From: Blasia pusilla
Lineage: Eukaryota
DNA: 64,000 bases
Direction of reading: 5' to 3'
Assembly (NCBI GenBank): GCA_050084515.1
Contig: CM114271.1
Span: 44,144,001 to 44,208,000 of the forward strand
Shown here: piece after piece, positions 771 through 61,547 of the stretch
How positions within the stretch are numbered: position 1 is the first letter of the stretch
Layout of the letters: each line of letters begins with the position of its first letter
The notes under the pieces: model-generated
The model's database searches: none
Told to the model about the DNA's origin: nothing
Seen by the model: the letters and a program-made list of their open reading frames with translations, nothing else
Translations under genes and position numbers: made by a program

Positions 771-1212
771 CTAAGACTCACGTTCGGGGGGAGTAGGCGC
801 ACTACATGATAGCTCTCAAAACATTGATCGGGAAACACATAAGTCTAAAGACATATAGGACAAGCCATCCGAGCTCTATTTCCACACTTTGAGCACTTTT
901 GACAATGTTGACTCTCCATAAAAAAGTCAAACTTACTCGCCACACTTATATGTAAAGACAACCACTGCATTTGTGTCCTTCAATGATCCATGCAAACTAG
1001 CTAGTTGCAATGGTTGGTGAAACATGATAATGATTAGGGCGATTTTTGCTTTATATTAGCCTTAACTTTCAGAGATCAATCCCCATATCCCCAAAAGATC
1101 TAGTAGTTCATCAAAATTCAATCTATCCCTAACCCCCAAAAAATAAAACAATTCCACTGCATTGTAGTATGAGGTTCACAACCATAAAAAACATACATTT
1201 GGTTGTGAACGT

Positions 1213-1686
1213 TGTCATGACCATACGGATTATGTCGTAGAGTATGGTGTGCTAGTAGAGGCCATTCCTTATGTAGGACCGTAGTGGATTGGTAGAGATG
1301 CGGTTCCATACATAGGGTTGGGGGTTACTCAGTTGGGGGTGACTTTCCCAGTAGGGCCCGCTCTTAGGTTGGAGGATATAAGGTGGAGTGCACTCAAAGA
1401 ACAGTCAGTTCTTTGAGTTGAGCCTGTTGCGTTGGGAGTTAGCCTTGGTAGTGAGTAGAGCTCTTGGCTATGGTGTTTCCCGCAAGCTTCGACCTAGATT
1501 CTCCCATTGTGGAGTGGGTTTGGCTCGATTGTATGTGATTGTAAACGTGTTTTATGACAATAGGTCTTTCACGGATTTTAGTTGTGGTACACTTGTGTTT
1601 GTGGATACTCTCGTCTATGTTATGTATGTATGTGAGTATGGTATGTCAGCGATGTATGTTGTATGACGATGTGGATTCGCACGACA
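1213..1686 (+). mobile_element. Solo LTR (A+B unit) of the Ty3/Gypsy DNMT/PHD family
   Basis: Starts TGTCA, ends GCACGACA, flanked by the 4-bp direct repeat ACGT (1209-1212, 1687-1690). Internal gatataagg TATA-like motif; 3' part has the family's gcgatgtatgttgt...cgcacgaca tail. Confidence 0.75.
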
Positions 1687-2109
1687 ACGTCCACACCACA
1701 TATTAGAGCTAGTATTTAACAAGCATGCGCCTTTTAGGTATTTCTGAGTAAATTTTTCACTTCAATCCAACGTCATGACTTAAGCGTTAGAGTGGGTTAG
1801 ATGATATAAAAAGGAAAGACCGGGTATAATTTTGAATCCATACAATTGCTAAAATTTGAATATTTGCGTTCATCCGGGATCCTCCAACTCCACCCCCCTT
1901 GACTTAAGTTCTTTTGGCCCCTAACCAAGATGGCCAAACTCTATCCATTCTTATTGTCCATATGCAAAGAATCCATGACACCAAAATATGATCCAAGCAT
2001 GAACACAATGTATACTAAAATAGATGAATCATATATTCTACAAGAAAGATATAGGGATCACTTCCAATCGAAAGGTTGTATCCACCATAGAACTCATATC
2101 GTAGTTTAT

Positions 2110-3705
2110 GAGAGAGTGATGAGGAGTCGGTGCCAGGATGGCACGCGTCAGCCTATTTAGGCACGTTGGCTATGGAGAGCCAGAGTGTGGAGACTTTGAT
2201 GGCGAGGTCTAGTGGAGAGTCTTTGGATCCCGAGGCCAGTGAGGACACGACAAGTGGCCGAGATATTCATGATGATGGAGTAGTCTTAGAGTACCTTCGT
2301 CTTTGGCGACCTTGCGAGCACCATGGATGCTAGAGAGCGGGATCGGATCCTCTGGCCGGGCCAGGCGGTTCCATTGGGAGGGGACACATGTTTTGAGGGT
2401 TTGGGAGGATGGCGAGCACGCGTAGTGCCGCATCCTTTGCGAGAGAGCACGACTAGTGCAAAGCATGCCCACGAGGAGTTGGGTCACTTTGGGGTGAAGC
2501 GGACGTATAGCTTGCTCCGATTCGATATTGGTGGCGGGCATGCGGACGGCGTTCGGCAGATTTGTTGCCAGGTGCATGGTGTGTGATCGGGTCCGAGCAT
2601 CGTTCAATGCTCCGACTCCGCGTTGCATCCATTACCGATCATGGGCTTAGGGTATAGATGGAGTTTGGATTTTTGCAGGACCTTTGCCCTTGACGGAGCG
2701 TCACGGTTGTTATGTGTTGGTGATGGTGAGCACTTTCGAAGTGGATCGAGTTGGTTGCATTGCTTGACAAAGCAAGTGAGGGAGTAGCTTATGCCTTCCT
2801 TGACAGAGTGCTGAGTCATTATGGCGCACCAGCTGAGGTGTTGACAGACCAGGGTACCGAGTTTCGCGGTGAGTTCCAGGCCTTGTGTGATCAGGCCGAT
2901 CGACCACCGCCGACGACAGCGAGATCATCCTGAGGCGGATGGATTAGCGGAGAGAGTTGTGCAGGCGATGAAGAGGGGTTTACGCAAGTATGGCTTGCAG
3001 AGAGGTCACCTAGGAGATTGGGACCTCCGGTTGCCATGGTTGGCGATGGGATCTGATTCAGAGCGAGGCATCCTTAGCGTCTTTTTACCGTACTTGCTAC
3101 TTTATGGCGAGAGCCAGATTTACGTCGCGGCCATTCGTCGAGATGATCTTTGGTGAGGTGTTGAACCTTGATGACCCAGATGTATGGGTGCAAGCATGTT
3201 CTCGAGAGGGCTGAGTTATTTCGAGAGTGATGCCCATGGCGTTCGAGAACTTGGCGATTACCGCGACAAAGATCGCGATACGTTGAGGTATCGACTATTC
3301 GAGGTGGTGGTTATCGACCAACTATCCGGAGGTTTCATCAGGAGATTATGTCTATTTGCAGCAGACGGCACCGGCGGCGTTGGATGTGATCTGCAGGCGC
3401 ACTATCCACGAGAGTGCGTGACATTTTGCCATCGGGTGTTCTCTTCTTTGGAGGGACGCGATGGTATGGTATGGAAGGACCATGTGCGTAATTGTGCGCC
3501 ATGTCACCTTCCTAACATTGATGGTACAATAGATCCGAGCTTAGTAGTAGTTCTGCAGGCTTGCGTTGTATATTGTGTGGTTACGCCGTGTAGTGCCACG
3601 ATGCTAGTCTGTGATGGATGTTCGAGAGGATGGCATATGGCATGTTTGACGCCACCTCTCACTAGGGTTCCTCAGGGACGATGGATGTGTCCCAGATGTA
3701 CATAG
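2110..3705 (+). pseudogene. Ty3/Gypsy integrase (HHCC zinc finger + DDE core) with C-terminal PHD finger, frameshifted
   Basis: AHEELGHFGVKRTYSLL (HHCC), VLTDQGTEFRGEF and HPEADGLAERVVQAMKRGL (DDE core), WDLRLPWLAMG, then [33 protein letters not shown] (PHD). Confidence 0.9.
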
Positions 3706-3844
3706 AGAAGGTAGTTCTACATTCCGACTTGTGTCTATGACATGGATGACAAGGAGGCGACTAACGATGGGGCCACATGAGCACCCGGCCTTCTTGCTCT
3801 TAGCGTCCGAGAGATGTATGTCATGGTAGGTAGGGATAGATGGC

Positions 3845-4640
3845 TATCTGGAGTTAGAGGGACCTAACCACCAGCTAGGGGGGCGATTGGAGATATTTTG
3901 GTTCTTCTTGTCTCATTGTTTGGATGCCATGAGTTAGCATGGGATCATGCGTGTTTGTGTGTGTGTTCGGTGACAGCGATGTATGTTGTGTAGCGATGTG
4001 TATGCGCACGACAATTGTCACGTCTTTTAGGATAGATCGGTGGGATCTAATAGAGCGCCTTCATGAGTAGTGGAGGACACGCCCAGTAGGTCGAGGGTGA
4101 CCTGCTGAGGCCCTTGGAAACCTGAGATAGTAGGTTTCCCTTCGCGTTCGGCTCATTTGGAGCCATATTGAGGAACTTACTATTTTAGGTAAGTACCATT
4201 TTGATTATATGATCGACTTACTATTTTTGGTAAGTGGCCCTTGACCTCCTACATCAGGTCAAGAGCCAAGGAGGTGACTTGGGAGAATAGGTTACCATGG
4301 AGAGAGCTTGGGAGAGGAGAGGGGTATACCTCAAGGAGAGAGAGCTTGAGAGCTCATTCTCTCTTTGTTGAACCTCTTGGCATGAGGCGGCGGAGCTATG
4401 GTACCTTGCCTTGTGAATGTAACCCAAGCCTCTCATTAGGAGAGTGGGTTTGGTTTGACATGAGAGAGAGTGCACACCTTTGAGAGCTATGGTGTGAGAT
4501 GGTGGAGAGAGAGATTGGATCTTACTTTAATTGGAGATATTTTGGTTCTTCTTGTCTCGTTGTTTGGATGCCATGAGTTAGCATGGGATCATGCGTGTTT
4601 GTGTGTGTGTTCGGTGACAGCGATGTGTATGCGCACGATA
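3845..4640 (+). repeat. 3' terminus of Gypsy family: PPT-like tract + B1 (3886-4013) + at + A2 (4016-4529) + B2 (4530-4640)
   Basis: attggagatattttggttcttcttgtctc...gcgcacga(c/t)a occurs twice; junction gcacgaca-at-tgtcacg at 4006-4022; agctaggggggcg lies directly before B1. Confidence 0.85.
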
Positions 4641-5010
4641 GAGTGGACTTTGTACGCCACACTTGGATTCCAACCTGAGATTCACTTCGTGCGAGTCTTG
4701 GTGAGGAACTCATTGGATGTCCATCGGACAGTTGGAACCGCTAGGCGCGAAACGCCGTTTCAGATTCCTGAACCGACCAGAAAGTCTATCCCAAGTCTTT
4801 CGAGATTTTCCCGTGTTGTAAACCGCGAAACTAGGAAGTTTGAGCTTGATGAGAGTCCAATACGAGAACTCAGAAAGTAATCCCGCTGATTGATCCATGA
4901 CCCGACTAACCGAAGTGCGTGTTTGGATGCAGATCAGCGTTGAGAGCGTGACCTACTGAACGCACGCTTCCGCAACAAACAAGATTAACGTTCAAGGAGA
5001 GTAAGCCCAC
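4641..5010 (+). repeat. Second partial copy of LTR-like family X
   Basis: Collinear with about 460-800. Confidence 0.5.
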
Positions 5011-5029
5011 GACACGGGTGGAGCCATTG

Positions 5030-6400
5030 TTGACCACATTGTTGGAGGTAGCCACTAGGGTAAGCTAATATCTGTGTTTTTTTTCGCCATGGAGTTGGAG
5101 ACGATGGGAATTGAACTAGTAGAGATGTTTCTGTTGAACGCCACGTTGTGTAAGCGTGGAGAGATAATTGGCTCTTTTTTGGAGGTGGTTGTTGAGGAGG
5201 TGGTGGACCTGCCCTTAGAGCATGTGCATGGGACGTCTCTCACACAAGTATGGAAAAATGCGGTTGCAAAGTTGGTAGATATTTCACCTCGACTAGCCAT
5301 AGAGCAAGCCATGGTGACACCTACTATGGTGTTGTTGGAAACATGAGCTAGATTGTTTTGTTTGGTTAGTTGCACATATATATAGTGTACCACATGCAAT
5401 GTGTCCTACTTGATTTGGAAGTGCAACCCTTCGTGTTAGGTAAGACAACGTGTTTGGCGTTGGGGTTACGAAAAGGCGACATTGAGCCTTGTCCCTTTTA
5501 GATACAAACCTTTAGTGGGGGCGTGTCACCCATGTAGTTCATGACTCGACAGGAGTTAGGTGTTAGACTCAAGCACGAGCATGAGTAAGATAGTGCAATG
5601 GTGTGCACTCGGGTGATTAGGCCACCGGTAGAGTCATATGATGTGTTATTAGGGAGTACGGTTTTATATTCCCTTGGTTTCATCCTTGATATTTGGGAGG
5701 AGATGGCTTCTTATAGACCGGGATGGCGATCGGTGATGGATGTGTGAACCATTTATCGGTGCATTTGCAAAGGCGTAGTGGTGGTCAACCATATGACAAT
5801 ATGGTGACCACGTTGGCAACATTCACATGTGGTGTTAGTTGACCAAGAGAGTTGTTGGAGAGGATCACCCATATAGAGGACATCCCAGTAGCGGATAGTC
5901 CCACGGAGAGACGTGTCAGGGTGGTTGTCTCGTCCCATGGTGAGAGACCTCTTTACCGTTGTTGGGTAATGAGTGTTGAGTTGCAAAGGAGTGTAGACAA
6001 GCTCGTGAGGCATGCATGGAGCCGTGCCTATGTCTTGAAGTAGAGAGAATCAGGTGATGGTCATGATCTTGGACTCGAAACTTGATATCTTTGGATACCA
6101 CACCTATTGTGTGGCAACGCTTGGAGGAGGATGCGAGAGTGTTAGATCTCTTTGAAGGGATCAACATGGCGAGAAGTTGAAGTGTTGTAGTGTTGCAGGA
6201 TGTCATCCGGATACATCGATATCTCTAAGTGGAGATAGATGAGATGGATCCGAGAACGAGTATGTGTTGCGGGAATGACGGCTCCCACGGTGCTAGATGT
6301 GTATAGAGTAGTAAATCATGTCATGTAGATGTGATGTCTGCTATCTAGAGTTAGGGGGGCCCAATTTCCAGCTAGGAGGATGGTTGTGTGGTCTTGATGT
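5030..6400 (+). pseudogene. Degenerate Gypsy-DNMT copy: gag C-terminus, protease, start of methyltransferase (motif I), deletion, then 3' UTR/PPT
   Basis: Homologous to 52710-53900; reads EEDARVLDLFEG at about 6124-6160; ctatctagagttaggggggcccaatttccagctagg at about 6341-6376 matches the family pre-PPT block. Confidence 0.8.
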
Positions 6401-6494
6401 ACATGTAAATCTTGAATTCCCGATTTTAGTCATAGTCAGCCAAGTGACCCGTTGACCGAGTCATTGGCATGTCGCTATAATTCCCTATTTTGGT

Positions 6495-7115
6495 CTTAGT
6501 CAGTGATGATGGTAAAAGGGTTACCAAATAAGTAACTCTTGAAATGCACGACAACCCACATTGCAGCCAAACACTCATCCTCATACGAGCTATATTTCGT
6601 CTTTATATCTTTGTTTGAGCGATTAGTGCAAGCCACCACAAACTCTCTACCCTCATTGTCATGCTAGGTGAGCATGGCTCCAAGTCCCGACATCCTCCAA
6701 TTTGTATGTAATTGGAAAGGACGTCCCCTTATCAGTCTCCTCGGTATAGGCACGGACGTCAACCTATCCTTGAGTAGTTGAAATGCTCTCTCTCATTCAT
6801 TCCTCCGTGCCACTCGTGATCCACCTTAGTCAACAAGGTTAGTAGCCAATCGAATAGAAACCCTTGATGTACCCTCAATAGAAATTCTCCAATCCCGTGA
6901 ATGCATGAACTCGACTCATATCTAGTTGTAGAACGTGGAATACATGAGATAGCCTCTACCTTTGTCTACTGAACACCATGGCCACCTAGGTATATCGAGT
7001 GACCCAAGTACTCAATTTGGTCGTAACAGAACTTGCACTTGCCTCGATGTATCTTCAGCCCATGTAACTTCAATTATTGAAATTCCTCCTCCAAATGTCG
7101 CTCACGCTCCTCAAT
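6495..7115 (-). pseudogene. Ty3/Gypsy reverse transcriptase C-terminus and RNase H fragment
   Basis: Hand translation of the minus strand gives ERHLEEEFQ*LKLHGLKIHRGKCKFCYDQIEYLGH and RSNKDIKTKYSSYEDECLAAMWVVVHFKSYLFGNPFTIITD. Confidence 0.8.
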
Positions 7116-12216: not shown

Positions 12217-12993
12217 GTGGCTACATAATCAGCTGGGAGTGACGGCGAATCGAGGAGGAGAAGTGTGGGCGGGACAGGTTATGGAATACAGAGCCTGAAA
12301 TCCGTGGCTACATAATCAGCTGGGAGTGACGGCGAATCGAGGAAGAGAAGTGTGGGCGGGACAAGTTATGGAATCTGAGCTGAAATCCGTGGCTACATAA
12401 TCATCACGGGAGGAGTGGCGAATCGAGGAAGAGAAGTGTGGGCGGGACAAGTTATGGAATACAGAGCCTGAAGTCCGTGGCTACATAATCAGCTGGGAGT
12501 GACGGCGAATCGAGGAAGAGAAGTGTGGGCGGGACAGGTTATGGAATACAGAGCCTGAAATCCGTGGCTACATAATCAGCTGGGAGTGACGGCGAATCGA
12601 GGATGAGAAGTGTGGGCGGGACAGGTTATGGCATACAGAGCCTGAAATCCGTGGCTACATAATCAGCTGGGAGTGACGGCAAATCGAGGAAGAGAAGTAT
12701 GAGCGGGACAGGTTATGGAATACAGAGCCTGAAATTTGTGGCTACATAATCAGCTGGGAGTGACGGCGAATCGAGGATGCAAAGTGTGGGCGGAACAGGT
12801 TATGGAATACAGCGATGGAATACAGAGCCTGAAATCCGTGGCTACATAATCAGCTGGGAGTGACGGCGAATCGGGGAAGAGAAGTGTGGGCGGGATAGGT
12901 TATGGAATATAGAGCCTGAAATCCGTGGCTACATAATCAGCTGGGAGTGACGGCGAATCGAGGATGAGAAGTGTGGGCGGGACAGGCTATGGA
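12217..12993. repeat. 87-bp tandem repeat, about 9 units
   Basis: Unit gtggctacataatcagctgggagtgacggcgaatcgagg...gagcctgaaatcc starts at 12217, 12304, 12389, 12477, 12564, 12651, 12738, 12838 and 12925; degenerate unit near 13075-13150. Confidence 0.95.
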
Positions 12994-13396: not shown

Positions 13397-13544
<148 letters not shown>

Positions 13545-15681: not shown

Positions 15682-18600
15682 GATTTTCTTAACTATGGTT
15701 AGTTAATCACAGTTAGTCTAACTCGAGACTATGGTTAAAGGTAGGGTTAGGGTTGCTTGTACATACCCTATATAATTGAGAAGAGGATCATCCTCCACTC
15801 ATTCTCTCATTGCAAATTTCTTTCTCCATGGTGGTGTGTGTGTGTGAGAGCCGTTTTCCACCAATTATGCTTGTAAAGCAGTTTTCCACATAGTATCAGA
15901 GCGGGAGGAGAACATCACTTGAAATTCTTGGTGTTTGAAGAGAGAAGAGAGGCAAGAGAAGGAAAAATTTTGATTCGGGAGAAGGAAATTTTATTCAGAG
16001 CTCAGTGGATGCAGATTTCAGGTGGAGCTTTGACGGTGATAAAACTTTGGAGGCATTTTATAGGGTTTTTTCCGATCGATTCAGATGTCTGGGTCCACTT
16101 CGTCTAGAATGACGCTAAAATCTGGTTCAAAATTTCTTGTAGACCTTGTCGAGAGCTTTCCAACTCACCCAAAATTACTCGATTGTGACAACCTTAGCTC
16201 CTGCAACATCAATTTCAGTGTAGGAAAGTGCAATTAGTGAAGAAAAGTTGTGGAGTTTGCTCTCTACACTCCAATTTCAACTAGTTCTTTCATACAGTTG
16301 ATCAATTTTGTCAAAATTCAGGTCGATTTCTGTATGGGAATGATCTATGCTTCAATTGGAGCACTAGAAAGCCTGAAATTATGTTTTTGTGAGTGAAATC
16401 GTTTATCATGGAGTATTCCTCACCAGCAATCACAAGCGAGAAGCTAGACAAGCAAACTTACAATGTCTGGAAGTTTCACATGAAACAATTTCTCATGGGT
16501 CAAGAACTATGGGAGCTTGTCACAAGTGATGAGGCCAAGCTAGAAGGTGGCTCAACAGACTTGAATGTTCGCGCGTTTGTTCCAAGCGCGAACATTCAAG
16601 ATCCACTACATTTCAATAAAGATCAATTCGCCAATGATAGGTCACATCCAAGACGTCGATATTCCGAAGGAGGCCTGGGATGCATTGGAAAAGTTGTTCC
16701 AGACATCTACAAAGGCCATAAAGCTTCAATTGAAACAGCAATTGAACGAAGTGAGGAAATAATCGCAGACCATCAATGATTATATTTTGAATATCAGACA
16801 TATTGTTGAATAGCATTGGAATGATAGTAGAAGATGTTGATTTTATTTTATTCACTCTTGAAGGCCTTCCAAAGGATTACAAGTCCTTTGAGATCTCTAT
16901 CTCTGTGAGAGAGAAGTATCCAACCTTTCAAGAGTTAGTTCCTCTGTTGATCAGTGAAGAGATGCACCTAGTAGACAGCGGTAGCTCGTATAGTCTGCAA
17001 GAGAGTGCGCTATTTGCAGGTTATGGATCAAACACAGACAAGGATCGTGGCAGAAACTTTCGTGGTCATTATGGATATCAAGCATATGGAGGAAGAGGCA
17101 CTCATTATAATGTCACTCAATCAACTACGAACCAGTACCAGACACAATCACAAGATGGTGATGATGGAAGCCGTTGGGGTCGAGGTCAGCAACAGAGGGT
17201 CCATGGATCTTGCAATTACTGTGGGATAAAGGGTTTCTATGCAAAGTTTTGCTTCAAGAAGAAGGCAGATATGAGAACAAGAGCCTTACAGCAACAAAAC
17301 TGTGTGGAGCAGCAACACCAAGAGTAGTACCAAGAACAACAACATTCACAAACGGAGCATCTCTTGGTCATGACTCATCATGTGAGAGCAATGGTCAAGA
17401 AAGACTCGACAGCAGATTGGTACATTGACTTTGGTGCATCAAATCACATGAGCTCACAAGTGAAATGGTTCAGTAGTTTGGAGCCGGTGAAAGATCCTGC
17501 AATTGTGCTCACAGGAGATTATACTCAACATCATATCACGCATATCGGTAAAGTTCCAATAGCATCAAATGGTCTTTGTGCTTTTGGAAATATTCTCTAT
17601 GTTCCTACCATTGCAAGAAATCTGATTTCTGTAGGACAGATAGTAGAACAAGGTTATCAAGTGAAGTTTAACGCAGATGGTTGTTTCATCGAAACAATGG
17701 ATGACCGGACTACGATAGCCAAAGCAACTAGATCTGGAAGAATGTTCAAATTAGATGCTTCTATACCAGAGATTCAAACAACAATGTATGGTCAAACCGG
17801 CCAACAAGTCATAGATGTGTGGCATAAAAGAATTAGACATATGAATCTTCAAAGATTACAGAGTCTTTCATCATCTAATATAGTAATAGGACTCCCTAAA
17901 TTAGCGAGTCCTGCTACGTTAGAGGTATGTCTTGCTTGCCAATTTGGAAAACAAGCTAGATTTCCTTTCCCAAAGCAAGGTAGAAGAACATCCAAGATAT
18001 AGGAGTTGATCCACAATGATGTGTGGACAACATCACAACATAGCCTTGGTGGTTGCCAGTACTTTGTTTCATTTATTGATGACTTCTCTATGTATATATG
18101 GGTATACATTCTGAGTCAGAGGTATTCTCAGTGTTTCAAACGTTCAGAGTTCTAGTAGAGAAGCAGACTGGACAACACATTTTCAAATTACGTTGTGATG
18201 GAGGAGGAGAGTATCTTTCTAGAGAGTTTGATGACTATTTATGTCAGAATGGCATCCAACGTTAAGTGACTTACCGTTACATTCCACAACAAAATGGAGT
18301 GGTTGAGAGGAAGAATCGATATATTTCTGAAGCGGCACGAGCTATGCTGAATGAGATGAACATGCCTAAGGTGTATTGGGCAGAGGCTGTAGCATTTGGA
18401 GTCTTCTTAATCAACCGAACTCCAACAGCAGCAGTTCATATAAACTCCATTCAAAGTCTTCACAGGAAGTAAACATGATTTTTCCTTCTTGAAAGTATTT
18501 GGCTGTATTTGTTATGCTCATGTTCCTTTTGAGAGACGTCAGAAATTAGACCCCAAGTCTGAAAGATGTATCTTCATTGGCTATGCTACTGGAACTAAGG

Positions 18601-20878
18601 GGTATAAGTGCTACATTCCATCCTCTAGGCAAGTTATTATTAGTCGAGATGTTTTCTTTTATGAGCTAAAGTCATGGTATGCTCCATCTGAGCCTATTCC
18701 ACCTCTAAACTTGTCTGTTGAGGGGGGAGAATATGACTATAAACCAACATATATTGTCTTCAACTTCCCCAAGTACTAGTGTAGGATTAGGAGAGGTCCT
18801 AGATTCATCAGTTAAATCTGTGAGTCCATGGACAGGAAGAGTACATATTCACTCTGTTGACACTAGTCAGAGCTCGAGTCAAGTGTAAGAGGCATCTACC
18901 TCTGAACAACAACCTTGTAGATCAAGTAGAGTTACACATCCAGTTCATAGATTCATAAATGAAGGTTTCCTTGCGACACATCATGCATATATGATGACTA
19001 CCCTTCAAGAGCAAGAGCCGAGTTATTTTGAAGAAGGTGCGAGTAAAGCCGAATGGATTGAAGCTATGGAGGAAGAGCTTGCTGCATTAAGACATCCAAA
19101 AAAATAGGAGTTGGTTGATATACCTTCCGGTAAGGAAGCTATTGGTTGCAAATGGGTTTACAAAATCAAGCACAATCAAGATGGTACAATTAACACATAA
19201 AAAGCGAGACTGGTAGCTAAGCGCTATGCACAACAACATGATATCGATTATGAGGAAATGTTTAGCCATGTTGCAAAGATGGCGACTACAAGAATAGTGG
19301 TTGCAGTTGCAGTAAGTAAGAAGTGGAGATTACATCACATGAACGTCAAAAATGCCTTCTTGAATGGAAATCTATACGAGGAGGTATATATGACTCAACC
19401 ACCTGGATACGAGCATCCCAAGTTTCCATATCGCGTATGCAGGTTCAAGAAAGCTCTATACGTGCTCAAACAAGCTCCAAGAGCTTGGTATGGCAAGATT
19501 ACATACGTCCTACGAGAGTTGGGTTTTAGGGTATGTGATTCTGACTCCTTGTTATATGTCTTGAGAGGACAAGGTCATACAGTTCTCATTGTGTTGTATG
19601 TTGACGATCTCTTGATTAGTGGGAGTACTGAAGAAATGGTATAACAAGTCAAGCTTAAGTTACAAGCAAAATTTGATATGAAGGACTTGGAAGAACTCAA
19701 GTACTTCCTTGGTATTGAGTTTATCAAGGTTGGAGAGAGCATGTGGTTACTACAACGACAATATGCTCTTCATATGCTTTCAAAATATGGTATGAAGGCT
19801 TGTAAGCCAATCTCTACACCGTTGGACCAGAGCGTGAAGCTAAGAGTGGATGAAGGAGAGCTACTTGCATATTCTAATATATATATATATATGTGCATGG
19901 CTGGAAGTTTGATGTATCTAACTATAACCAGACCAGATTTGAGCTATATTGTGGGCCTAGTGAGCCAGTTTATGCAAGGACCTCGAAAACCTCACCTTGA
20001 TGCTGTGAGGAGGATTATGCGGTATGTGAAATTCTCTTATTCAATTCGGGCTTCAATTTGAACCTTCTCCGAGTTTTCAATTACAGGGATTCACAGATGT
20101 TGATTGGGTAGGAAGCGTGTCTGATCGACACTCCATATCTGGTTATTCATTTACTTTGGGAAGCGCAACTATAAGTTGGGCTTCAAAGAAGCAACCTACT
20201 GTTGCTCTATCTTCAACAGAGGCTGTGTACAGAGGAGCAACCAATGCAGCATGTGAGGCAGTGTGGCTTCATCGATTACTTGTTGAGATTGGTGTTAGTA
20301 ACTTACGACCTAGTGTAATATATGCAGACAATATTAGTAGCATCAAGATTGCTAATAACCCTATGTTTCATGCTCGTACAAAGCATATTGAGGTGCACTA
20401 TCATTTTATCATAGAGAAAGTGCTTGCAAGAGAAATTGATCTTGTATATATAGGTATAGATCAACAAATTGCTGACATCTTTACAAAGGCATTGTCTAGA
20501 AATAAGTTTGAGATGTTTAGAAAGGATTTAGGCGTTAGAGATATCGATATGAGCTTGAGGGAGGAGTATTGAAGATTGAGTTACAGTCAAGCTCATGAGA
20601 CACCTGAACTGCTACACTTGGTACTCACACGGAGTAGGGAAGCTTAATCTTGGTTAGTCAGTTAAGCACGATTATCTTAACTAGGGTTAGTTAATCACAG
20701 TTAGTCTAACTCGAGACTATGGTTAAGGGTAGGGTTAGGGTTGCTTGTACATACCCTATATAATTGAGAAGAGGACCAGCCTCCACTCATTCTCTGATTG
20801 CAAATTTTGTTCTCGATGGTGGTGTGTGTGAGAGAGAGTTGTTTTCCACCAGTTATTCTTATTTAGCAGTTTTCCACA
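15682..20878 (+). mobile_element. Ty1/Copia LTR retrotransposon, decayed; 5' LTR truncated
   Basis: 5' LTR remnant 15682-15890 matches the distal ~210 bp of the 3' LTR 20567-20878 (both end gttttccaca). PBS tagtatcagagc (tRNA-iMet type, TGG>TAG) at 15891-15902; PPT ttgagggaggag just before 20567. Confidence 0.95.
16408..20572 (+). pseudogene. Copia gag-pol polyprotein with multiple stops and frameshifts
   Basis: gag (YNVWKF, CNYCGIKGF), protease (WYIDFGASNHM), GAG-pre-integrase (WHKRIRH..CLAC), integrase (PQQNGVVERKNR), RT (LKQAPRAW, LYVDDLL), RNase H (RTKHIEVHYHFI), in Copia order IN-RT-RH. Confidence 0.95.
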
Positions 20879-21689
20879 GCTACAAGGTTGGAGTCATTTG
20901 ATCGAGGTTGGGTAGAGTACGTGGTAAGAGCCACGATATGGTTTTAGGAGAGTTATATGGTTAGGATTGAGAGGTATAATCCGTGTCGAGAGTTGATGAT
21001 GGAGTTTCAGTGCGCATGATGCCAACGGGTTGTCCGCGTATGTTGATGGGAAGACCGATTTGTTGTACGAAGAGTTGGTTGTGCTGCCGAGGTTCCCGAG
21101 CCACATGGAGGAGTGAGTGTTGATGGAGCAATTGATTGGCGGGAGTATTCAGGTTACCCATTCGAGTTCCTTTTCCCGCACTTGTCTCATGTTAGTTAGA
21201 GTGATGGGTTGGGTAGTCGCAAGTGCTAAATGGGTTCAATTATGGTGATGAGTGTAGACTTCTTTCATGTTTAGCATGTTTGTATGGCGGTTACCCAGTA
21301 GGGGTTGAGTGTATGACTTGAGCGTATGTTGGTGATTATTAGGTGAGATAGTCGAGAGGCTCAAGGTGAGCCTGAGTGTTGAGTGTGCGGGAGGCCGAGT
21401 GTGTCATCACGAGGTTACAATTAGCATAGGTGAGCTAGTGAGGAGTGCGGGAGATTCTTGGTGAGTCTGAGTGTTTGAGCGGGTGAGACAGGATGATCAT
21501 CAAGGCGTTCTTCTAGGGTTGGGAAGAAGGGGGTAGTTCGAGTATTAGTGGTGGTGTGACAGGGAGTGGAGTGAGATATTGAGGGGTTACGAGCAAGGAA
21601 CCACCTCAACTTCCATCTATAGCTAGATCGTCATCACTAAACAACGGGTTTGGTGACGAGATCGCAGACAGAGGCAATGTCACTTGGCA

Positions 21690-24390
21690 GGAGATGGACG
21701 ACATGTACATGAGCCATTGGGGTATACGTCATTTCTCAGGTGCAGTGGGTACCATCGACCTAGATGACTTCATCCAAGAGTTGACACATGGTACAACTTC
21801 CAGGAGATACAGACCGCGACACGGTTCAACCCTTTCATGGCATAGAAGGGGTTGTTCCAGCACTTGGAGGGTCCTCTGATGGATGATTACATGGATTTTT
21901 GATCGTTGTACTCAATAGAGATCAGTGCCTGGAGGATGTATAGGGCTCCATGGTATATATCCACTAGTGGTTGCGAGGCATATGATGGGATCGTGAGAGG
22001 AGCGAGACCCACACCATCAGGCCGGAGACTAGATTGAGAGGAGAGCAGTGATACATGCAACCTAGGAGAGACCTCTGGCGGTAGAGGGCCACCCAGCTTT
22101 AGTCCCCCAATGGAGTTCTTCCGACAATTGGGGAAGAGCTATCAGGGCGTACGCACCGACAAGCTGAAGAGTCTATAGGATTTTTAGCGATGATCGGGTG
22201 AGAGTCTAAGAGAGGCATTCACACGCATGCAGAGATTGATCATTGCGACATATGGGGTGATTAAGGCGCAGTCAGTGCATATTGGTTAAGGGTGTTGGAC
22301 AAGGAATTACGGAGGAGAGTTTGGGATGCAATGTTGCTTCACACAGCAAAGCCCACATTGAAGGTGGTCTTCGAGTTGTCTGAGCGAGTAGAGCTCGACA
22401 TGAGTGAGGAGCATGTAGTGACCATGGGATTTTTGTGGGATTCGAAGGGTCGACGAGTAGGAGTAGACCCACAAGTGCCCCAACATGCACCGGTACCACA
22501 GGAGTGGGCCGGTGAGCCTAAAGAGCAGGCCGGGTATCGTGAGCCGATGAGGCAACGGCCCGTACCAACATATGTACCCCAACAAGGACCAGGGTTGGCT
22601 TGTTTGATGTGTGGTGGGCCACATAGGCAGAGGGACTTCCCATATCATGGGAGAGGGCCACGCACATCTCCGATTGCTCAAGAGCCATAGAGGATGCCCC
22701 CACCACAGTTGCAGTGTGATCATTGTCATCGATATGGTTACACTAGGGATAGGTGTTTTGATCTTCATCGAGCGACACGTCCAAAGATAGGCAGAGGGCA
22801 TGGCGGTGAGAGAGTTGGTGGTGGCAAGGAGTTGATGATCGTGGTGGTAGAGTACTATCATCAATCACTGGAGATGGAGGACTTGTACCCAATGCAGCGC
22901 TCCTCACTCGCATCAATCAATTAGAGCAGAGGATTGTTGCCATGACGATGATGCAGCTAGTGATAGGCATAGAGCCGAGAGTATCTAGTGTGGCTCCAGC
23001 CTCCATGTCGTATCAGGATACATGGGAGGACTATATGGGATTAAGGTTTATGTATAGTGCGGCTCAAGTTGAGGTTGTTGCGGTGGTGACTCAGGTTATT
23101 GCAAGAGTAATCGAGCCATCGAGAGGTGGGGTGGAGATTGACCCACATGAGGGAACCGATGGGCGGCAGGCCAGGGTTCCCCAGTCGGTCACATTGTCGG
23201 AGGCACTACATACACCGTCGATGGTGTCTCGACGACCGATACTACCCACATGTGGGACAGGTACGTCAATGTCATGAGGAGTTGGAGAGACGACTCCTAT
23301 GCCATCTCGGGTGGAGCCAGTGCCGACCATGTTGTTGGAGGTGGCCACTAGGGTGAGCCACGCTCCGTTGTTTTCTGCCATGGAGTTGGCGACTTTGGGA
23401 GTTAGACCAGCGGAGGTGTTCCGGCTGGCCGCCACGTTATGTGAGCGTGGAGAGGTGACCACCTCTCATTCAAAGGTAGTTGAGGATGTGATGGACTTGT
23501 CCTCAGAGCAGGAGCTCGTGACGTTCCCCACTAAGTCATGGCATGTGACAGCGGCAAAGTTGGTAGATATGCCAGCTAGGCCAGCGATAGAGCGAGCCAT
23601 GATCACACTAGGTGTGGTGTTGTTGGATAACCGAGCAGGAGTGTTTTGCTTGGCTAGTCCCACAGATACGGTGTACCACCAGCAACACGTCCTACTTGGT
23701 TCAGGAGCGCAACCCTTGATGTTAGGGAAGGCGGAATTTTTGGCGTTGGGGTTACAAAAAGGCGACATTGAGCTTTTTCCCTTTTAGATACAGATCTCTA
23801 TTGGGGACGTATCACCCACGCAGTACATGATTCGACAAGAGTTGGTACTTAGATTCAAGCCAGAGCATGAGACGGATAGTGCGATGGTGCACACTCGGGC
23901 GATTACGACACCGGCGGAGTCGTATGATGTGTTGGTAGGGAGTACGGTGTTATATCCCCTTGGGTTCATTTTGGATTTTTGGGAAGAGACGGTTTCTTCT
24001 CGGCCAGTGTGGCGATCAGGTGATAGACGGGTGAGCCATCTACCAGTGTTGTTTGCAGGGAGTGGTGGTGATCAACCACGTGAGGATACGGTGACCACGT
24101 TGGCAGCATTCACAAGTGGTGTTCGATGATCAGAGGGTTTGGGGAGAGGGGCACACATACAGAAGACATTCCCGTAGCGGATAGTCCCACTTAGAGACAT
24201 GTCAGGGTGGGTGTCTCTTCCCATGGTGTAGAGCTTCTTTATTGTTGTTGGAGATGATTGTTGAGATGCGTGGAGTGCAAATGAGCTCGTGAGGCAGGCG
24301 TGGAGCCGTGCCTATGTTTGAAGCAAGGTACGAGAGTTTTAAATCTCTTCAAAGGGATCAACACGATGGGTTGCTGCAGTATGGCAGTGT
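21690..24390 (+). pseudogene. Gypsy gag (two zinc knuckles) + protease, truncated at methyltransferase motif I
   Basis: CLMCGGPHRQRDF and CDHCHRYGYTRDRC knuckles; VLLGSGAQPLMLG protease site; YDVLVGSTVLYPLGF; RVLNLFKG at about 24331-24356. Confidence 0.85.
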
Positions 24391-24462
24391 TGCGGGGACG
24401 ACGGCACTAATGGTGCCAGATGTATATAGGATGGTAGATCATGTTAGGTACATAGGTGTTTA

Positions 24463-25210
24463 CTATCTGGAGTTAGGGGGACCCAACTGCCAGCTAGGGT
24501 TGCGGTTGTGGGGTCTCAATGTATATGTGTGTATTTTTTGGTTTATGGATGGATCGACCCGTGTGTTGGGAGCAGCGATGTGTATGCGCATAACAGTTGT
24601 CACATCTTAGTAGCCGATAGGTAGAGATCTATCGTGGCGACGGCATAGAGAGCCAGCGGATTGTTTCGAGTGTAACTTCATCCCGAGGTGTCGGATGAGG
24701 TTGAGGATAGGTCCGTTGTGTCATGAACGTTGTTTCGGAAAACTTTCCTATTGAGGTCTTTCACAGCCGGGTGACTTGTTCACCACGTCACCTAGATCTA
24801 GTAACCTCTGCGTGAAGGTTACCAGAGGGGGTTGCTATTTTTAGGGGAAGAGCCTTTTGGCTCTTCCCATACCTATATAACGCAGGAAGATGGCTTTCTC
24901 AAGCCAACTTTCTCATGTTGGGCCGTTGGAGCACCTCTCTTGTTCGTGTGTGGGATAGGACTAGGGTGCTAGCGTCTGGATTCCTTGGTAGCGTAGGGTG
25001 GACGAGGCTCGACATGCGAATGTAGACTGAGGAGTAGAGTTTTAGGCCGGGTGTGCCATTTTTACTACTCTTATTTTTGTTGTGGGATCTTGATGTGTAT
25101 GTGTGTGTTGTTTGGTTTATGGATGGATCGACCCGTGTGTTGGGAAGATCGATGTTGTGTGATGTGTAGATGTGACCAGCGATGTGAGTTGTGTAACGAT
25201 GTGTATGTTG
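24463..25210 (+). repeat. 3' terminus: PPT block + B1 (~24505-24595) + gt + A2 (24598-25078) + B2 (~25079-25210, end eroded)
   Basis: ggtttatggatggatcgacccgtgtgttggga occurs in both B copies; junction gcgcataaca-gt-tgtcacatc; A2 aligns to 49101-49580. Confidence 0.85.
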
Positions 25211-25706
25211 TAAACCCTATAGATTTTGGTTTTATATACCAAAGACCCATCCTAGAATATGAGGAAGCCTTTGCCCTATTCAAAAAGTGTAAACATAAGA
25301 GAGTATGAAGACTAGAGGTTAGAAATCATTTCACATAGCACAAGCATTTTAGAAAGGCACATAGCTAAGTCAAAAGAATCATCCCCGGTAAAGAAAGCTA
25401 ATTAAGATAAGTAGACACCACAATTAGAAGGTATGGAAGAAGAGGAGAAAAACGAAAGTGTGAAGAAAGGAAAGCAAGGAAGAGACGAGGCTTGAGGAGT
25501 GGCATGCAAGGGTGGATAAATAGTGAGGGCTCGCACACCTTTATGGTAATTGGGCTTAACATCGTGACTGAATTTAGTTTTTCAGTTTTTTTAGTTGGGA
25601 AAATTCCTTGTGACTAACTATTAGTTTTAGGTGGTTTCAGTTGGCTGCTTTTTCGGTTTAGACTGAGCCAATTCGGTTCGAACTGAATTAGATGGGAGGA
25701 GCCAAT

Positions 25707-29459: not shown

Positions 29460-32400
29460 TTATCGTGTGCGCATGGTCCTCATGCAATCTTTAACCATTG
29501 TGAGTATGCGCGGGAATTCAAAGAATGCAATAGATGCTTCACCCTCTAGCCCTACACGGGTACATCGATTGTTCCCTGACAAGTTGTTACATGGGCTCCC
29601 TCCAACGACGAGGTCAAACCCACCAAATCGGGAGACTAGCTTTCTTACTACATCCAAATCTAATTCGTTCACGTCGTGATAATCATGAACAAGAACACCT
29701 CTCTGCCTAGTACTTTTCCACCAGTACTTTAGAACACTTCTTGCATTTTCATCGATTTCAACACTGACTACGACTTTTAGATGTATCCCCAACTTATGCA
29801 GCGCCACTTCTGCCCCTCCGATTCCAGTGAACAGAGACAAGACTCTCATGCCTAGAGGGAACAGGGGCTTCAACACCGACAAGTGATAGGCGACGGTGTT
29901 TACCTGGTAACTGTTTCCCAGCAGCTTGGCTCGGTTTATGTTTGAAAAGACACTCCGAGTGTGATGTCGATTGAAACCCATGATTATCTCCGTCTCTTCC
30001 ATGGTTAGAGGGGACAATTCATAGCTGTTGTGCCATACAAGATTCCATTTCCTTGCCCAAAACATGAAATCCGCTTTCTCGTCTTTAGTGGGATCCCTAT
30101 CCTCATCAATCGATTTTTGCAAACACTGCATAACTTTCCGTCTCACAAAATGTGATGCAATCGATGTATTTATGGTACACAACTTCACCCGATCATCCCA
30201 CCTTGGCCAGCTTTTATCTGTGCAGTTATGATCCATTACAGCTTCCTGAATGGTCATAGGTGGCTTGGGAAGGAGGTCAAGCCTGCCCTCTACTGGCAGG
30301 TTATGTATGTATCCTCGAGGCCTCCGACAGGCAGTGAAGTTCAAAGAATCAACAAACTCTGGTTTGATGTTGTATAAATGCCTCTGAATGTTCTCCCACG
30401 AACCCTTCGGGGTCGTGCAAACGTTTTCAAAATAAAAGTACGGTGGGCCCTTCACATCTTCCGGAAGATATCGGGGAATCACTGGGTAACCTGGTACTCC
30501 AAAACCTGTTCTGTTAGTTTTGATTTTGGGGATATCTCCTGGAGAGGGCAGGGCCCCACGTTCCACACGCTTAGTTTTGAGTGAAGCATTTTTTCGTCGT
30601 TTGACTGGAATGCTTGAAAATCCATCCTGCTCAAGCATTCCCCAGACGCACAAACCACCAATGTTCAGTGAAGAATACCACCATCAAAATGGCCTTCAGA
30701 ATGCCAAATTTTTTCATTCCCAAGTGTATGTTTTGGGAAACACAAGATGGAAAATTGGAAATATTCTGCATGAACATGGCAGCAAAAGCGATTTCCCATG
30801 ATCTCAGAACAAAACTTTCCATCCCAGCAGTTGTTATTCTCTTCTGCAAAGGGCAATTACCTTGCTCGACCGTTTGCCAGATTTAGCGAGATAAGGCATA
30901 GAGAGCTTCTGGTCATCATCCTGTCCCAAAATTGCAGAATACACAATGACAATAAGAACCCATCTGTGAATCAGTGCTCGTGATAGTTAGAATGCAAGGA
31001 CAGGAAGATAGAAGCCTATCTCCACAGGAGATAAGATGAAATAACTCACATCATCTTCAACGTTGTTTCGAATACATTCCTCCTCTGCCTCGTACTCCAA
31101 AGCCTCAATGAAGTTAACAAGTTCATCAATCTCACCATCAGCTACAACCAGCCCTCTCCATGGTTAAGGACTTTCACCCAAGAAAAGAATACAAACTGAA
31201 GAGAAACTCTTGCCGAGAGAATGCGAGCGATAGTGAGCAAATACAAGCCACTGTGGATAACCAAATTCCAGGGAATCTGTAACTCGGACGATACATACCA
31301 TAAGAATCGAGGGCTCTTTTGCACGCAGGAAGTGAATATTCCATTTTCAGTAACTGTCTGAGCTTCACCCAGTATGGCGAACTTCCCTCGAGAAACTCTA
31401 TGAGGTCATCCTCAGATGCATCTTCCCCTGAATCCCACGACCCCAGTGCCAGTTCTGACTTAGAGAGACATGGCGTTGTGTCCCGACACCTTAGCACCGA
31501 CTGGATTCAACACTGGGCAAGTAAAGGCTATGGCGTTTAAAGTCCAACAGTTCACTGCAAGTGATGGTCAACAGATATAACTAAGGGGTAAGAGGTAAGG
31601 GAGTCACCCATACCACAAGCCTCAACAGCTTGAGATGCGTTGTCTGGATTGAAACCCATCATTACCAATGACTTAGCAGGTTTCCCTTGAAGACATTTTT
31701 TATCAGGCAAAAGTAATTCTGAATTGTTCATCTCCTCATCCAAGTACTGGTCCTCACCCTTCAAACACAAACGAGAATGTTGCTTCAAAAGTTGTTAAAA
31801 CAAGTGACAATTACAATTGCTACATAATGCACAACCTATGACAACATATCATATTAACAGAGCAGTGATCCACATTTATGAGTGAGGCAAGGAATATATT
31901 ACATGGACACTTGACCATGCAGCAGACCCATAGACTTATACTAGAAGGCATGACCCTGCTTTCAATGCTTACCCAATCGGGATCACTCTCGGGATGTATT
32001 TTCAGATGCCTGAGGATATAATCGCAAAGTTCATCTAGACTTTTGTCCTCTCCTGCATGGATCAGACACTTGAGAATCAGATATTATAGAAGAGGAAAAG
32101 CCACAAAAAAATACACAAACACCACAATACTACTGTGGTTGTTGTCAAAGGCACCTAACATTATGGCATCAGAGTGATTCAGTGGGAAAACTGGTTAAGT
32201 CAGAGAGAAGCCAACCACAAGTTTGAAAAGCTTGTTCCACAAGCTTCTCAGCAAAACCCATTCTTGAAAGGGCGGCTTGCTTTCCTCCTTCTTCTGACTC
32301 CTGGCCCCATGGATCTGAATCCAGGCCCCATGGCTCTGAATCAGGGACATATGGCTCTGAATCCGACCCATAATTAACCTCCTGTGGGAAAATGACCACC

Positions 32401-33972
32401 AGCGCTCAATTAGAAAATTACATGAGAGAAATAATAATGCAAGACCTTCACCACCAGAAGTTCTTCACGTCAACACAGGAAGACAGTCAGTCTCGTATTT
32501 TCATAAGCACCTTCACATTTTTCAATATGGCCAGGATCAATCGGTAGAAATGATAATAGAAGTAACGCACATAGGCCCAAATGATTACGGCTCAGGTGAT
32601 ACAGATGAATCAAGAAAGGCAGTTGATGCTTTGAAGAAAAAGGGTTTTAGCAAACAATGCCCATTGCAAGGAAGCAGTCACTCAGAGACCCTCAGCCTGT
32701 AGAACGCATTTCCAAAGCCCATTCACCTCTTCAAATGGACCGTCCACGGGAGCTTTCCCTTTGTCCACAACACCCTGAGATCGCGACTGGACAATTTCCA
32801 TCTTCTCATACTGGTCGACTGGATCATCATCTGGGAAAACTTTCTGCTTAGCACTGCCGATGCAGTCGGCCTTTCCAGATATCCCTTTCACCATGACACC
32901 AGAAGCACTCTCATGTCGTACCAGTTCGGCTCCTGGTAAAGATGAAAACTCCTTATTGTGAGCTGAGCTCGACGGATCCTGGAAGTCGAACAATACCCAC
33001 AAAATGAGGAGACGCCAACAGAGCCCAAGAAGGCACTCCCACAACAATCACATTTCGTAAGGCCCAAAAGGAAGGCAGGCGTCAGATCTTCCACGAAGTA
33101 GTGAGATTTCGTGTCATTCTAGAATCACGTAATTGTTTGCAACATCCTATGCCGAATTGCAATAGTACCGCATTCTTATAAAAAACCAGCCCCACATTTC
33201 CCTCAACTCCCTCACTCCAGACCCTATGTAGTGACCTACTCAAGGTATTACCTCCCACACCAAAGGTCAGGAGGGAGGGAGGAAAACCAAACCATAAAAA
33301 CAACAAATAGTACCTTCATGACGGATTGTCCTTGCATCAGAAGGCTGTCGATGATCTGCTCCAAGCTCCAGCTTGCTGCAATCGCAAAATTGCAACAGTA
33401 TGAGCAATTCAGCGAGAATTACAGGCAGATGCGAATTCATGGCTAGCAAACGGAAATCCAGAGAAATCACTCACGGTTTACTCGAAGGGCGTCTGAAGCT
33501 GGTTCAATTGGAAAGCCAGCTTCGACGAGTCTCGCTAGCTTTCCATCGCACTCTTCTTCGAGTGTTTCGACATGATCGCGCTGCTGGGACATCAATTTTT
33601 CGTTAAGCCCTCGTTTAGAAAGGGGGGAAACGACCTCATATCTGAAAGAGCGGTAAAAAGCAATGCTGACGGAAAAGAATTGCAACAGCGGAGAAGCCAT
33701 CTCACTTGGGGACGGACATCGTCGCTACACGACGAACCAGAGGCGACGCTATCGCCATCATCGTCCAAATCCTGTGTAACAAAAGGCACACTTTCGCAGA
33801 GCCCTCTGACGAGCTGGGCCACTCTTGGATCGCCCAAATTCCCCATACGTTTGCAAGCGTGAAACAGCCTCGATGCCCAATGAAGACTCCCTCGCAGTCC
33901 ACCCAACGAAATCAATCATCTGTTCCCGGTCTCCATCACCTCCGAAGACACCTCCACATCCTCCTCCCCCAT
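29460..33972 (-). CDS. DRM2: DOMAINS REARRANGED METHYLTRANSFERASE (DRM-type de novo cytosine-5 methyltransferase), about 786 aa, 12 predicted coding exons, four UBA-like repeats
   Basis: Last exon has the permuted motif order typical of DRM: YFENV (VI), RRPRGY (VIII), LGNSYQ (X), then SLFTGIGG (I) and GGSPCNN (IV). Phase-consistent GT-AG exons read by hand: 33972-33940, 33771-33706, 33583-33475, 33375-33314, 32978-32727, 32381-32216, 32052-31973, 31758-31614, 31427-31299, 31141-31050, 30920-30861, 30626-29460. The 5'-most exons are less certain; the symbol denotes the family, not proven orthology. Confidence 0.93.
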
Positions 33973-34534
33973 TCCGCTGTGACAGAATGGAGGAATCTCC
34001 ACCAGAGACCCACCCATTCTAGCCGCGACTCTCCCTCCATCGAAAGCCCCAAAATCCCGAACCAATTTCAAGAGTCCAGTGATCCGCTCCGCGAAAATGT
34101 AGTGCCAATTTCGCTGACCGTTATCACTGCGGCAACATCCACTCCCACACGCACCCAGATGCCGTCTTTCGCTCGCTGCGACAGTTCGATCCCCGGCCTT
34201 CCGCCCCTCACACGCCGACCTCGCTCTCAAGTCTTTCTCTGCAAGCGTAGCAGCGCAGCGAATCGGCTCCTCCTCTTCTCTCTGGTCACTGCGTCTCGAC
34301 TCTCGTATCTTGACCTTCGCTGCGGGTTCGAACGGGGGAACTATTCTCGCCTGCCCGTCATTGCCGTGAAATGTGGAGGTCTGTCGTTCTCCGCCCGCCT
34401 GCCCTCCTTTCTCCTTTCGCAGTCAACGACTTACTCACTCGTCGCTAGCCGGAGACGTTTGTCCCGTTGGCGGCTCCTCGTCGTTACCCGGGCAGACTTT
34501 CACTCATCCGGACTCCGGAGGTCTTTTTATCTAC

Positions 34535-36799: not shown

Positions 36800-36800
36800 G

Positions 36801-37063
36801 TAGGGGTGTCATCCGGGGTTTTAGGTTTCCCCGGAACTCTCTATTCGGGGACCGGTAGGATCCCAAATGGGTAGGTCTCGAGGTACCTCTTTGGCGTTCC
36901 CGTGGAGTGTCTTTCCTCTATGTTTTGATTTCTTCCCGGGGACCCCATGGAATTAGGGTGTTGTAAAGCTCCCGCCCCCTTTCTTATGGAAGTAGCGGAT
37001 GCCTTTCCGGGCTTGACCCCCTAATCCAGACGATTCCGGATAGCCGCTAAAATGACACCCCTA
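36801..37063. mobile_element. MITE-like element with 12-bp TIRs
   Basis: taggggtgtcat ... atgacaccccta is a perfect inverted pair; GC-richer interior; TSD not evident. Confidence 0.65.
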
Positions 37064-38929: not shown

Positions 38930-39370
38930 TGATGACAAGAAGGAGGACTTAAGATGGGGCTACACTAGCACCCAATCTTTTTCCTTGTAGCAACTAGAGT
39001 TAGAGGGACATAACCACCAACTATGGGACAATTGAAGACCCTTTTGATATACTATTGGTTGCATGTATGGATTCCATTGTATGTTTTAGGATAGTGTCTA
39101 GTTTTATGTGTATGGACAATGATAGCCATGTACATATAGGAAAATTATGAAGTCTCTTGAATTGGAGCAAAGAGTATCTACATGGTATATCCGGGAAGGT
39201 TAAACGTCGATGCTAGTAGGTAAATGATGACATATCAAGGGGAAGGGTATTCTAAGTGTGTAGATTGCTCTCTATTTTTTACTCTATAATTGGGTGTGGT
39301 ATCTGATTTTATAAGTGTATGAATGGTGACCACGTTCTAGGTTGCGTAACAATATGTATGCACACGACAC
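38930..39370 (+). repeat. Degenerate 3' UTR/PPT/B remnant of the Gypsy-DNMT/PHD family
   Basis: gatgacaag..gatggggc..gcaccc and ctagagttagagggacataaccacca match 3745-3875; ends tatgtatgcacacgaca. Confidence 0.6.
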
Positions 39371-41296: not shown

Positions 41297-46969
<5,673 letters not shown>

Positions 46970-54930: not shown

Positions 54931-55039
54931 TCTCCATGTATATGTATGAGTTGATTTTTGTACATGTGTGGATTGACTCATGTGTGGGGAAGATCGGTGT
55001 TGTGTGGTAGATATGTATGCGCATGACAAGCGAGTACAA

Positions 55040-61546: not shown

Positions 61547-61547
61547 A

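Follow-up and report, generated by a model that had tools for sequence, protein, structure and literature searches.

How can a retroelement with a DDE integrase end up with terminal repeats split into the order A-genes-B-A-B? Split direct repeats are a hallmark of tyrosine-recombinase elements, and TOC1 is among the retroelements that carry them. The window, by which we mean the whole 64-kb stretch of DNA analysed here, is eukaryotic, rich in repeats and, as self-comparison and direct reading establish, crowded with nested and truncated ones. Two copies of one bryophyte-type Ty3/gypsy family within it (copies 1 and 2) have 3' ends in the order PPT-B-nn-A-B, in which PPT is the polypurine tract, nn a two-base spacer, and A and B the two parts of the LTR. 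The first-pass annotation had described both ends and their junctions, GACA-at-TGTC and AACA-gt-TGTC, and self-comparison and direct reading confirm them, with the start of the second A (A2) in copy 1 corrected from 4012 to 4016. Copy 3 has the layout A-internal-B, with an A-only 5' end and a B-only 3' end. The features of the family in the window are as follows.

1213-1686, + strand: solo A-B unit; A 1213-1579, B 1580-1686; termini TGTCATG...CACGACA
2300-3849, + strand: copy 1, 3' part of the internal region, predicted integrase (H2C2, rve-like) and C-terminal PHD finger (Pfam, tblastn)
3850-3885, + strand: copy 1, conserved pre-PPT motif and polypurine tract (..gctaggggggcg), adjoining B1
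3886-4013, + strand: copy 1 B1; GACA end at 4010-4013
4014-4015, + strand: copy 1 spacer 'at', separating the abutted inverted termini ..TGACA and TGTCA..
4016-4529, + strand: copy 1 A2; begins TGTC; TATA-like motif near 4324; putative self-primer segment 4353-4367
4530-~4638, + strand: copy 1 B2; A2/B2 seam at 4529/4530
5015-6410, + strand: separate copy, truncated; PR-DNMT part, then the pre-PPT motif and the opening ~25 nt of B
20979-24504, + strand: copy 2 internal region, predicted gag-PR-DNMT deletion derivative, without a 5' end
24505-25217, + strand: copy 2 3' end; B1 24505-24595, 'gt' 24596-24597, A2 24598-25078, B2 25079-~25217
38996-39369, + strand: probable further 3' end; pre-PPT motif 38996-39015, B-like sequence ending ..cacgaca at 39369, then flank
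40869-~41300, + strand: A-only fragment of the copy-1 subfamily; unrelated flank, TGTCAT start, running into a (GA)n tract
49101-49580, + strand: copy 3 A1, a 5' end without B; TATA 49375; putative self-primer segment 49406-49419
49581-49594, + strand: copy 3 putative primer-binding site (PBS) ACATGAGAAAGATG, the 14-nt complement of 49406-49419
49595-54921, + strand: copy 3 internal region; gag (CCHC knuckle), protease-like part, C5 DNA methylase (~53224-54700)
54922-55028, + strand: copy 3 B; TGACA end, then unrelated flank

The internal part of copy 1 is 5'-truncated and frameshifted. Its B1 and B2 are 99% identical over 97 nt in self-comparison (E 1e-43); B1 has an extra internal duplication of ~17 nt, and B2 is without the final CA. 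Copy 2, whose B1 has the AACA end, shows 88% identity between B1 and B2 over 77 nt, and its A is 82.6% identical to that of copy 3. The flanks of copy 3, AACG and AGCG, agree at three of four positions. The solo unit, also reported in the first-pass annotation, is flanked by a 4-bp target duplication (ACGT at 1209-1212 and 1687-1690); its B was set to start at 1580 by the PPT-to-1580 joint in reads. The single 5' end seen earlier (49101-49580) does consist of A only, and it is joined by a second A-only 5' end at 40869-~41300. No Pfam domain was found upstream of the 3' end at 38996-39369 when the + strand of 30001-39000 was searched, and we therefore take this end to be an orphan fragment.

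Several other repeats lie among these copies. A 374-nt repeat (4641-5014 and 436-806, 71% identical) has no other match within the window; its first unit spans exactly from the end of copy 1 B2 to the start of the next truncated copy. This unit was considered as the leader of the element and rejected, as it matches no other copy. A 209-nt repeat that contains a TATA motif and is LTR-like in appearance (15682-15890 and 20670-20878, 91% identical) sits just upstream of the copy 2 internal region and is dissimilar to copy 2 A. A Ty1/copia-type fragment at 16791-18002 (+), with gag, Pol beta-barrel and pre-integrase domains, is unrelated to the split-LTR family, and a Gypsy RT-RNaseH fragment at 6499-7082 (-) is ~60% identical to Marchantia protein P0014. 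Tandem arrays with periods of ~87 bp and ~180 bp occupy 12217-12993 and 61537-62883, and a microsatellite-like tract is common to 13398-13542 and 46787-46967. Directly after copy 3 lies a 5'-truncated PR-DNMT fragment of the family (55079-56147).

From its coding content the full element reads gag-PR-DNMT-RT-RNaseH-IN-PHD, with copies 2 and 3 as deletion derivatives. Copy 1 scores 35.8 bits for the PHD finger and a weak 17.2 bits for H2C2 (Pfam), and its tblastn matches are to the rve part of protein P0030 and the PHD part of protein P0016. Copy 3 retains a zinc-knuckle gag and a C5 cytosine DNA methylase (PF00145, 35.7 bits), is collinear with P0004 and P0014 by tblastn, and has RT, RNase H and integrase deleted. 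A protein search with the methylase ORF gave 31 matches, of which the best named are from liverworts and mosses (Marchantia, Calypogeia, Sphagnum; 41-57% identity); no Klebsormidium sequence is among the 31. Marchantia P0014 has the domains DNMT 460-529, RVT_1 833-919 and RNaseH 974-1098, and a second Marchantia protein, to which the PHD region of copy 1 is 65% identical, has a DNMT part and a terminal PHD. The order gag..DNMT-RT-RH-IN-PHD is collinear by tblastn in five related loci (L045, L011, L024, L014, L022). A DDE integrase had been attributed to the family in the first-pass annotation, and in these loci the H2C2+rve pair (L011: Integrase_H2C2 51.4 bits, rve 39.6 bits) and the rve+PHD pair (L045: rve 48 bits, PHD 37.1 bits) score above the Pfam cut-offs. 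For Pfam runs on degenerate copies, translations carried X at stops; all examined copies are degenerate, and L011 and L045 have no ORF longer than 332 aa. No tyrosine recombinase was found in the family, whose 1.1-kb leader is without any Pfam domain.

The methylase domain sits between protease and RT (53224-54700 in copy 3 and 23300-24120 in copy 2). A PHD finger lies at the integrase C-terminus (3583-3702 in the window, ~9920-10060 in L045). In chromoviruses a chromodomain occupies the integrase C-terminus, and the PHD finger may be a chromatin-reading targeting module.

Is the split order a property of the family or of a few damaged copies? Metagenome contigs scanned with the methylase alignment yielded 80 loci, in which end layouts were read by self-comparison and by mapping the A, B and leader of one element. 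The start of A is visible in 22 loci, 19 of them distinct (L007=L008, L013=L014, L045=L046), and every 5' end passes from flank to TGTCATGACC...A and from there into the leader. B occurs between A and the leader, or upstream of A, in none of the 19 distinct 5' ends. Sequence past B1 is present at 12 distinct 3' ends. Three of these have the intact order B1-nn-A2-B2 (L011, L024, L045), two have rearranged versions of it (L051=L032, L065=L064) and seven stop after B (L014, L019, L022, L026, L034, L037, L067). The full A1...B1-nn-A2-B2 arrangement is seen in L011 and L045; L024 shows B1-nn-A2-B2. L062, from a distant DNMT lineage (~30% identity), has no clear repeat layout.

Units with both ends present are flanked by a perfect 4-bp duplication in five of five cases, three of the long form (L045 AAGG, L011 TCTC, L051 CACA) and two of the short (L014 TGTT, L022 ATTA), and the unit termini read TGTCATG...C(A/G)(C/T)GACA. 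In L045 and L011 the duplications enclose the whole A1...B2 unit, with none around A2-B2. The first-pass annotation had considered that complete copies might carry A+B LTRs at both ends, or that the B-A junctions might be independent solo-LTR insertions. No copy of the former kind was seen, and the duplications flank the whole unit; together with the lack of B at 5' ends, they exclude both nested solo-LTR insertions and canonical A+B LTRs. Among the features that define Ty3/gypsy elements, the family has the PR-RT-RNaseH-rve order, TG...CA termini with a short duplication, and the positions of PPT and PBS; in place of two identical LTRs, one per end, it has a 5' end of A only in 19 of 19 distinct cases. 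The split order A-genes-B-A-B is thus real and a trait of the family.

The priming signals indicate how such a unit might be copied. The motif GGA(A/G)GTTAGAGGGACCTAACC...AGGGGGG always stands directly before B, in 13 loci and three window sites, extending the earlier observation that B starts right after a PPT-like tract. At the other end, the bases directly after A1 complement an A segment ~26-31 nt downstream of the TATA motif: ACTCAAAGAACTATGTT against A 164-181 in L045, 14 nt in window copy 3 (49581-49594 against 49406-49419), and in the copy-1 subfamily a 15-nt complement of 4353-4367, which is found in the consensus of the loose ends that follow A in 73 DNA contigs of run X1. Complements of at least 10 nt occur at 10 of 20 5' ends, compared with 1 of 500 shuffles; the remaining ten 5' ends, which have no complement of that length, belong to old copies with substitutions there. 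That three covarying pairs keep their complementarity argues for self-priming, and the pattern points to a Tf1-like mechanism in this family. Further inside the A of L045, at ~255-265 (locus 1933-1943), 8-11 nt again complement the PBS region, in a shorter match than the first, and in L027 a second complement further inside A is the best match; such a second complement could be part of a U5-PBS fold.

With the PPT abutting B1, plus-strand synthesis would begin at B. Since U5 would end with A and U3 begin with B, ordinary strand transfers would yield LTRs ordered B-nn-A, in which the ends seen by integrase (TGTCATG.../...CGTGACA-type) abut inside the LTR, two bases apart. The first-pass annotation had already reasoned that reverse transcription from this PPT and PBS gives B-A LTRs, and its argument is strengthened by the PPT abutting B1 and the self-primer PBS abutting A1. 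The spacer is purine-pyrimidine in every case (AT, GT and GC in loci and window; GC, GT, AT and AC in reads), which may reflect a constraint or only transition bias.

Four runs under the same species label, two of DNA contigs and two of stranded raw RNA reads, were mapped to positions 1100-6500 of the window at 85% likeness, so that RNA reads pool many copies. The family is transcribed in the source organism. RNA is almost wholly of one direction, the sense strand if the library is of the usual type. Depth is 139-353 over B1 and A2; at the A2-B2 seam it drops about tenfold, from 139-165 to 15-23, and the latter figure, from the bin with B2 and flank, is the flank level. B-nn-A joints (1686 to 1213) occur in both RNA and DNA reads, with RNA counts in runs X22 and X23 of 52 and 74 for GC, 37 and 52 for GT, 9 and 9 for AT, and 9 and 3 for AC; the PPT-B joint of the solo unit's subfamily is likewise present in both. 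From the joints and the drop in depth it follows that the RNA holds PPT-B-nn-A, and that little of it holds the A-B seam. Fragment starts pile up at 1374 in one RNA run (30, at a local depth of 116), a position at the TATA-like motif, compared with ~30 nt downstream of it expected for a transcription start.

At the A2-B2 seam, the end of U5 meets the base that immediately follows the PPT. The seam has no extra bases in window copies 1 and 2 and an added A in L045 and L024. In L011 it has ~20 extra bases, including CGAG from the PPT side. In the L051 seam, 9 nt match the first bases of the PBS exactly, in a rearranged region where the reading is ambiguous. These seams resemble the scars of LTR-LTR circle junctions. 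The added A is common to the related loci L045 and L024, and hence the seam may be inherited and not remade in each cycle.

We propose, at a probability of about 0.6, that the integrated A-genes-B-nn-A-B form is explained by end-joined B-nn-A cDNA cut inside its upstream LTR. The replication-competent integrated form would be A1-PBS-genes-PPT-B1-nn-A2-B2. Transcription would start in A1 and stop close to where A2 ends, so that the RNA is terminally redundant within A; the minus strand would be self-primed as in Tf1 and the plus strand would start from the PPT, yielding a linear cDNA with LTRs ordered B-nn-A. In such a cDNA each LTR would hold the integrase sites (...TGACA-RY-TGTCA...) end to end, much like a circle junction formed in advance. 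Joining of the cDNA ends, in a 2-LTR circle or a head-to-tail concatemer, would create the A-B seam, and integrase would cut the junction in the upstream LTR and insert A-genes-B-nn-A-B. For the circle step, which we infer, the A2-B2 seam and the RNA drop at B2 offer indirect support. The short A-genes-B form could come from a linear molecule cut at both LTR junctions, from a 1-LTR circle that has been cut, or from B/B recombination after integration, and solo A-B units would derive from A/A recombination. The first-pass annotation had likewise traced solos to A/A recombination and short forms to 1-LTR circles; the former route is possible as a post-integration event, and so, for the short forms, is B/B recombination. 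We put at even odds the further claim that end-joined cDNA is the sole productive integration substrate, with the recognition ends moved to the internal palindrome TGACA-RY-TGTCA, circles obligate and the layout convergent with that of tyrosine-recombinase elements.

Several observations press on the end-joining proposal. Besides the possibly inherited seam and the degeneracy of all examined copies, no circular or end-joined cDNA has been seen. If a 2-LTR circle were cut at random, A-B-nn-A-genes-B insertions should be as common as long forms, and such insertions are found at none of the 19 distinct 5' ends; end-joining thus needs either a preference for one of the two junctions or rapid A/A recombination. 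Short forms, which account for seven of the 12 distinct 3' ends, cannot make a terminally redundant RNA, and their number implies a wasteful pathway or frequent B/B deletion.

The absence of A-B-nn-A-genes-B is what would be expected if the family replicated as PAT, Ngaro and DIRS elements do, because a templated route makes no such product. The transcript would then begin within A1 and extend into B2, with B1-nn-A2 as a template that bridges the two ends, and the seam would be inherited; the reverse-transcription intermediate would be circular or single-stranded, arise without end-joining, and still be inserted by the DDE integrase. We consider this route unlikely but still in contention. The added A common to the L045 and L024 seams favours it, as does a repeat order identical to that of tyrosine-recombinase elements (SymbioDIRS, KnitGypsy; PMC5890265). 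However, RNA depth at B2 is about one tenth of that at A2, the PPT at B1 and the self-primer PBS at A1 are ordinary LTR-type strand-transfer signals, and the L011 seam carries ~20 extra nucleotides that include PPT-side bases.

The prevalence of short forms would also fit a different order of events, in which A-genes-B is the constant primary product, cut from linear cDNA at two internal sites, and long forms and solos are rare secondary products, for example of recombination with other copies or with extrachromosomal LTR fragments. Short forms do outnumber long ones (seven against five of the 12 distinct 3' ends) and have perfect duplications (L014, L022). The short form, however, lacks terminal redundancy and is not copyable by the PBS/PPT route; the abundant B-nn-A joints in RNA can be templated only by long forms or circles; and the long forms L045 and L011 have whole-unit duplications of their own. 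These points leave short-form priority decidedly improbable. Far more doubtful still, to the point of being scarcely credible, is an artefact of nested or tandem insertions of ordinary A-B or B-A LTR elements, or of misassembly. The window is full of nested and truncated repeats, and copies 1 and 2 lack 5' ends, as such an artefact would have it; but the same order recurs across the window, independent metagenome assemblies, and the reads and contigs of four runs, the duplications enclose whole units and never A2-B2, and B is found in none of the 19 distinct 5' ends.

The A-genes-B-A-B layout is therefore not diagnostic of tyrosine-recombinase elements. The use of LTR-LTR circle junctions as integration substrates is an old idea that has been mostly dismissed in retrovirology, and the anatomy of this natural family seems to require it. 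The question can be tested, as the family is transcribed and has protein relatives in the genetic model Marchantia. Programs that search for LTRs as a pair of identical terminal repeats will probably set the boundaries of such elements wrongly, misdate them or overlook them, and the short A-genes-B form is without any terminal repeat. An element with its own DNA methyltransferase and PHD finger is also of interest for the interplay of transposons and chromatin.

Among known systems, PAT, Ngaro and DIRS elements, and TOC1, share with this family the split direct repeats A1-internal-B1-A2-B2, in their case with a presumed circular intermediate. PAT, Ngaro and DIRS carry a gene for a tyrosine recombinase and insert without duplicating the target, whereas the present family has an H2C2+rve integrase, TG...CA termini and 4-bp duplications. 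In the copy-out-paste-in pathway of IS3/IS911, a circle with abutted inverted ends a few bases apart is the substrate of a DDE enzyme; these are DNA transposons without reverse transcription, and the likeness is one of analogy only.

The closest published description is that of KnitGypsy-Dnmt3 from Klebsormidium nitens, which the Fig. 4c legend of PMC5890265 (de Mendoza 2018) presents as having a DIRS-type repeat structure with Gypsy domains and whose pol contains a Dnmt3-type methylase; the same source describes SymbioDIRS as 'A-coding region-B-A-B'. By these descriptions, our family is like KnitGypsy-Dnmt3 in combining a Gypsy pol that has a C5 DNMT in the polyprotein with a DIRS-like repeat order, and a Gypsy element that joins the A-genes-B-A-B layout to a DDE integrase has been published before (PMC5890265). 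The two differ in host, and the best named relatives of the window DNMT are from liverworts and mosses. Section 9 and the Fig. 4c legend of PMC5890265 contain no analysis of PBS or PPT, target duplication, seam, short form or mechanism. Neither a replication mechanism for such elements nor this family in bryophytes was found in the literature outside subscription journals and Repbase reports, where de Mendoza 2018 was the one relevant paper, and the plant LTR survey PMC6317226 has no mention of Marchantia, PHD or methyltransferase. Relative to the literature outside subscription journals, Repbase reports and the supplements of PMC5890265, the whole-unit 4-bp duplications, the covarying self-primers, the PPT at B, the RNA stop before B2 and the short form appear to be new.

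Self-priming has been described for Tf1/sushi and predicted for Tcn1 (PMC6317226). Like those elements, our family has no tRNA-type PBS, and the bases after U5 complement a 5' part of its own RNA; unlike them, with their ordinary identical LTRs, it has a PHD finger in place of a chromodomain and a DNMT between PR and RT. Modular LTRs of an unusual kind in Dictyostelium DGLT-A were considered as a possible parallel and dropped, being unsupported in passages of PMC5006619 and PMC6101501. Foamy-virus and HIV-1 integrases cleave palindromic 2-LTR circle junctions, as stated in the abstracts of PMC1180852, PMC1905944 and PMC4372172, and the step that we propose is similar, with a retroviral-type integrase cutting abutted CA..TG ends within a junction. 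In retroviruses such cleavage is a side route of debated importance, whereas in this family every LTR contains the abutted ends, and the element would depend on this route.
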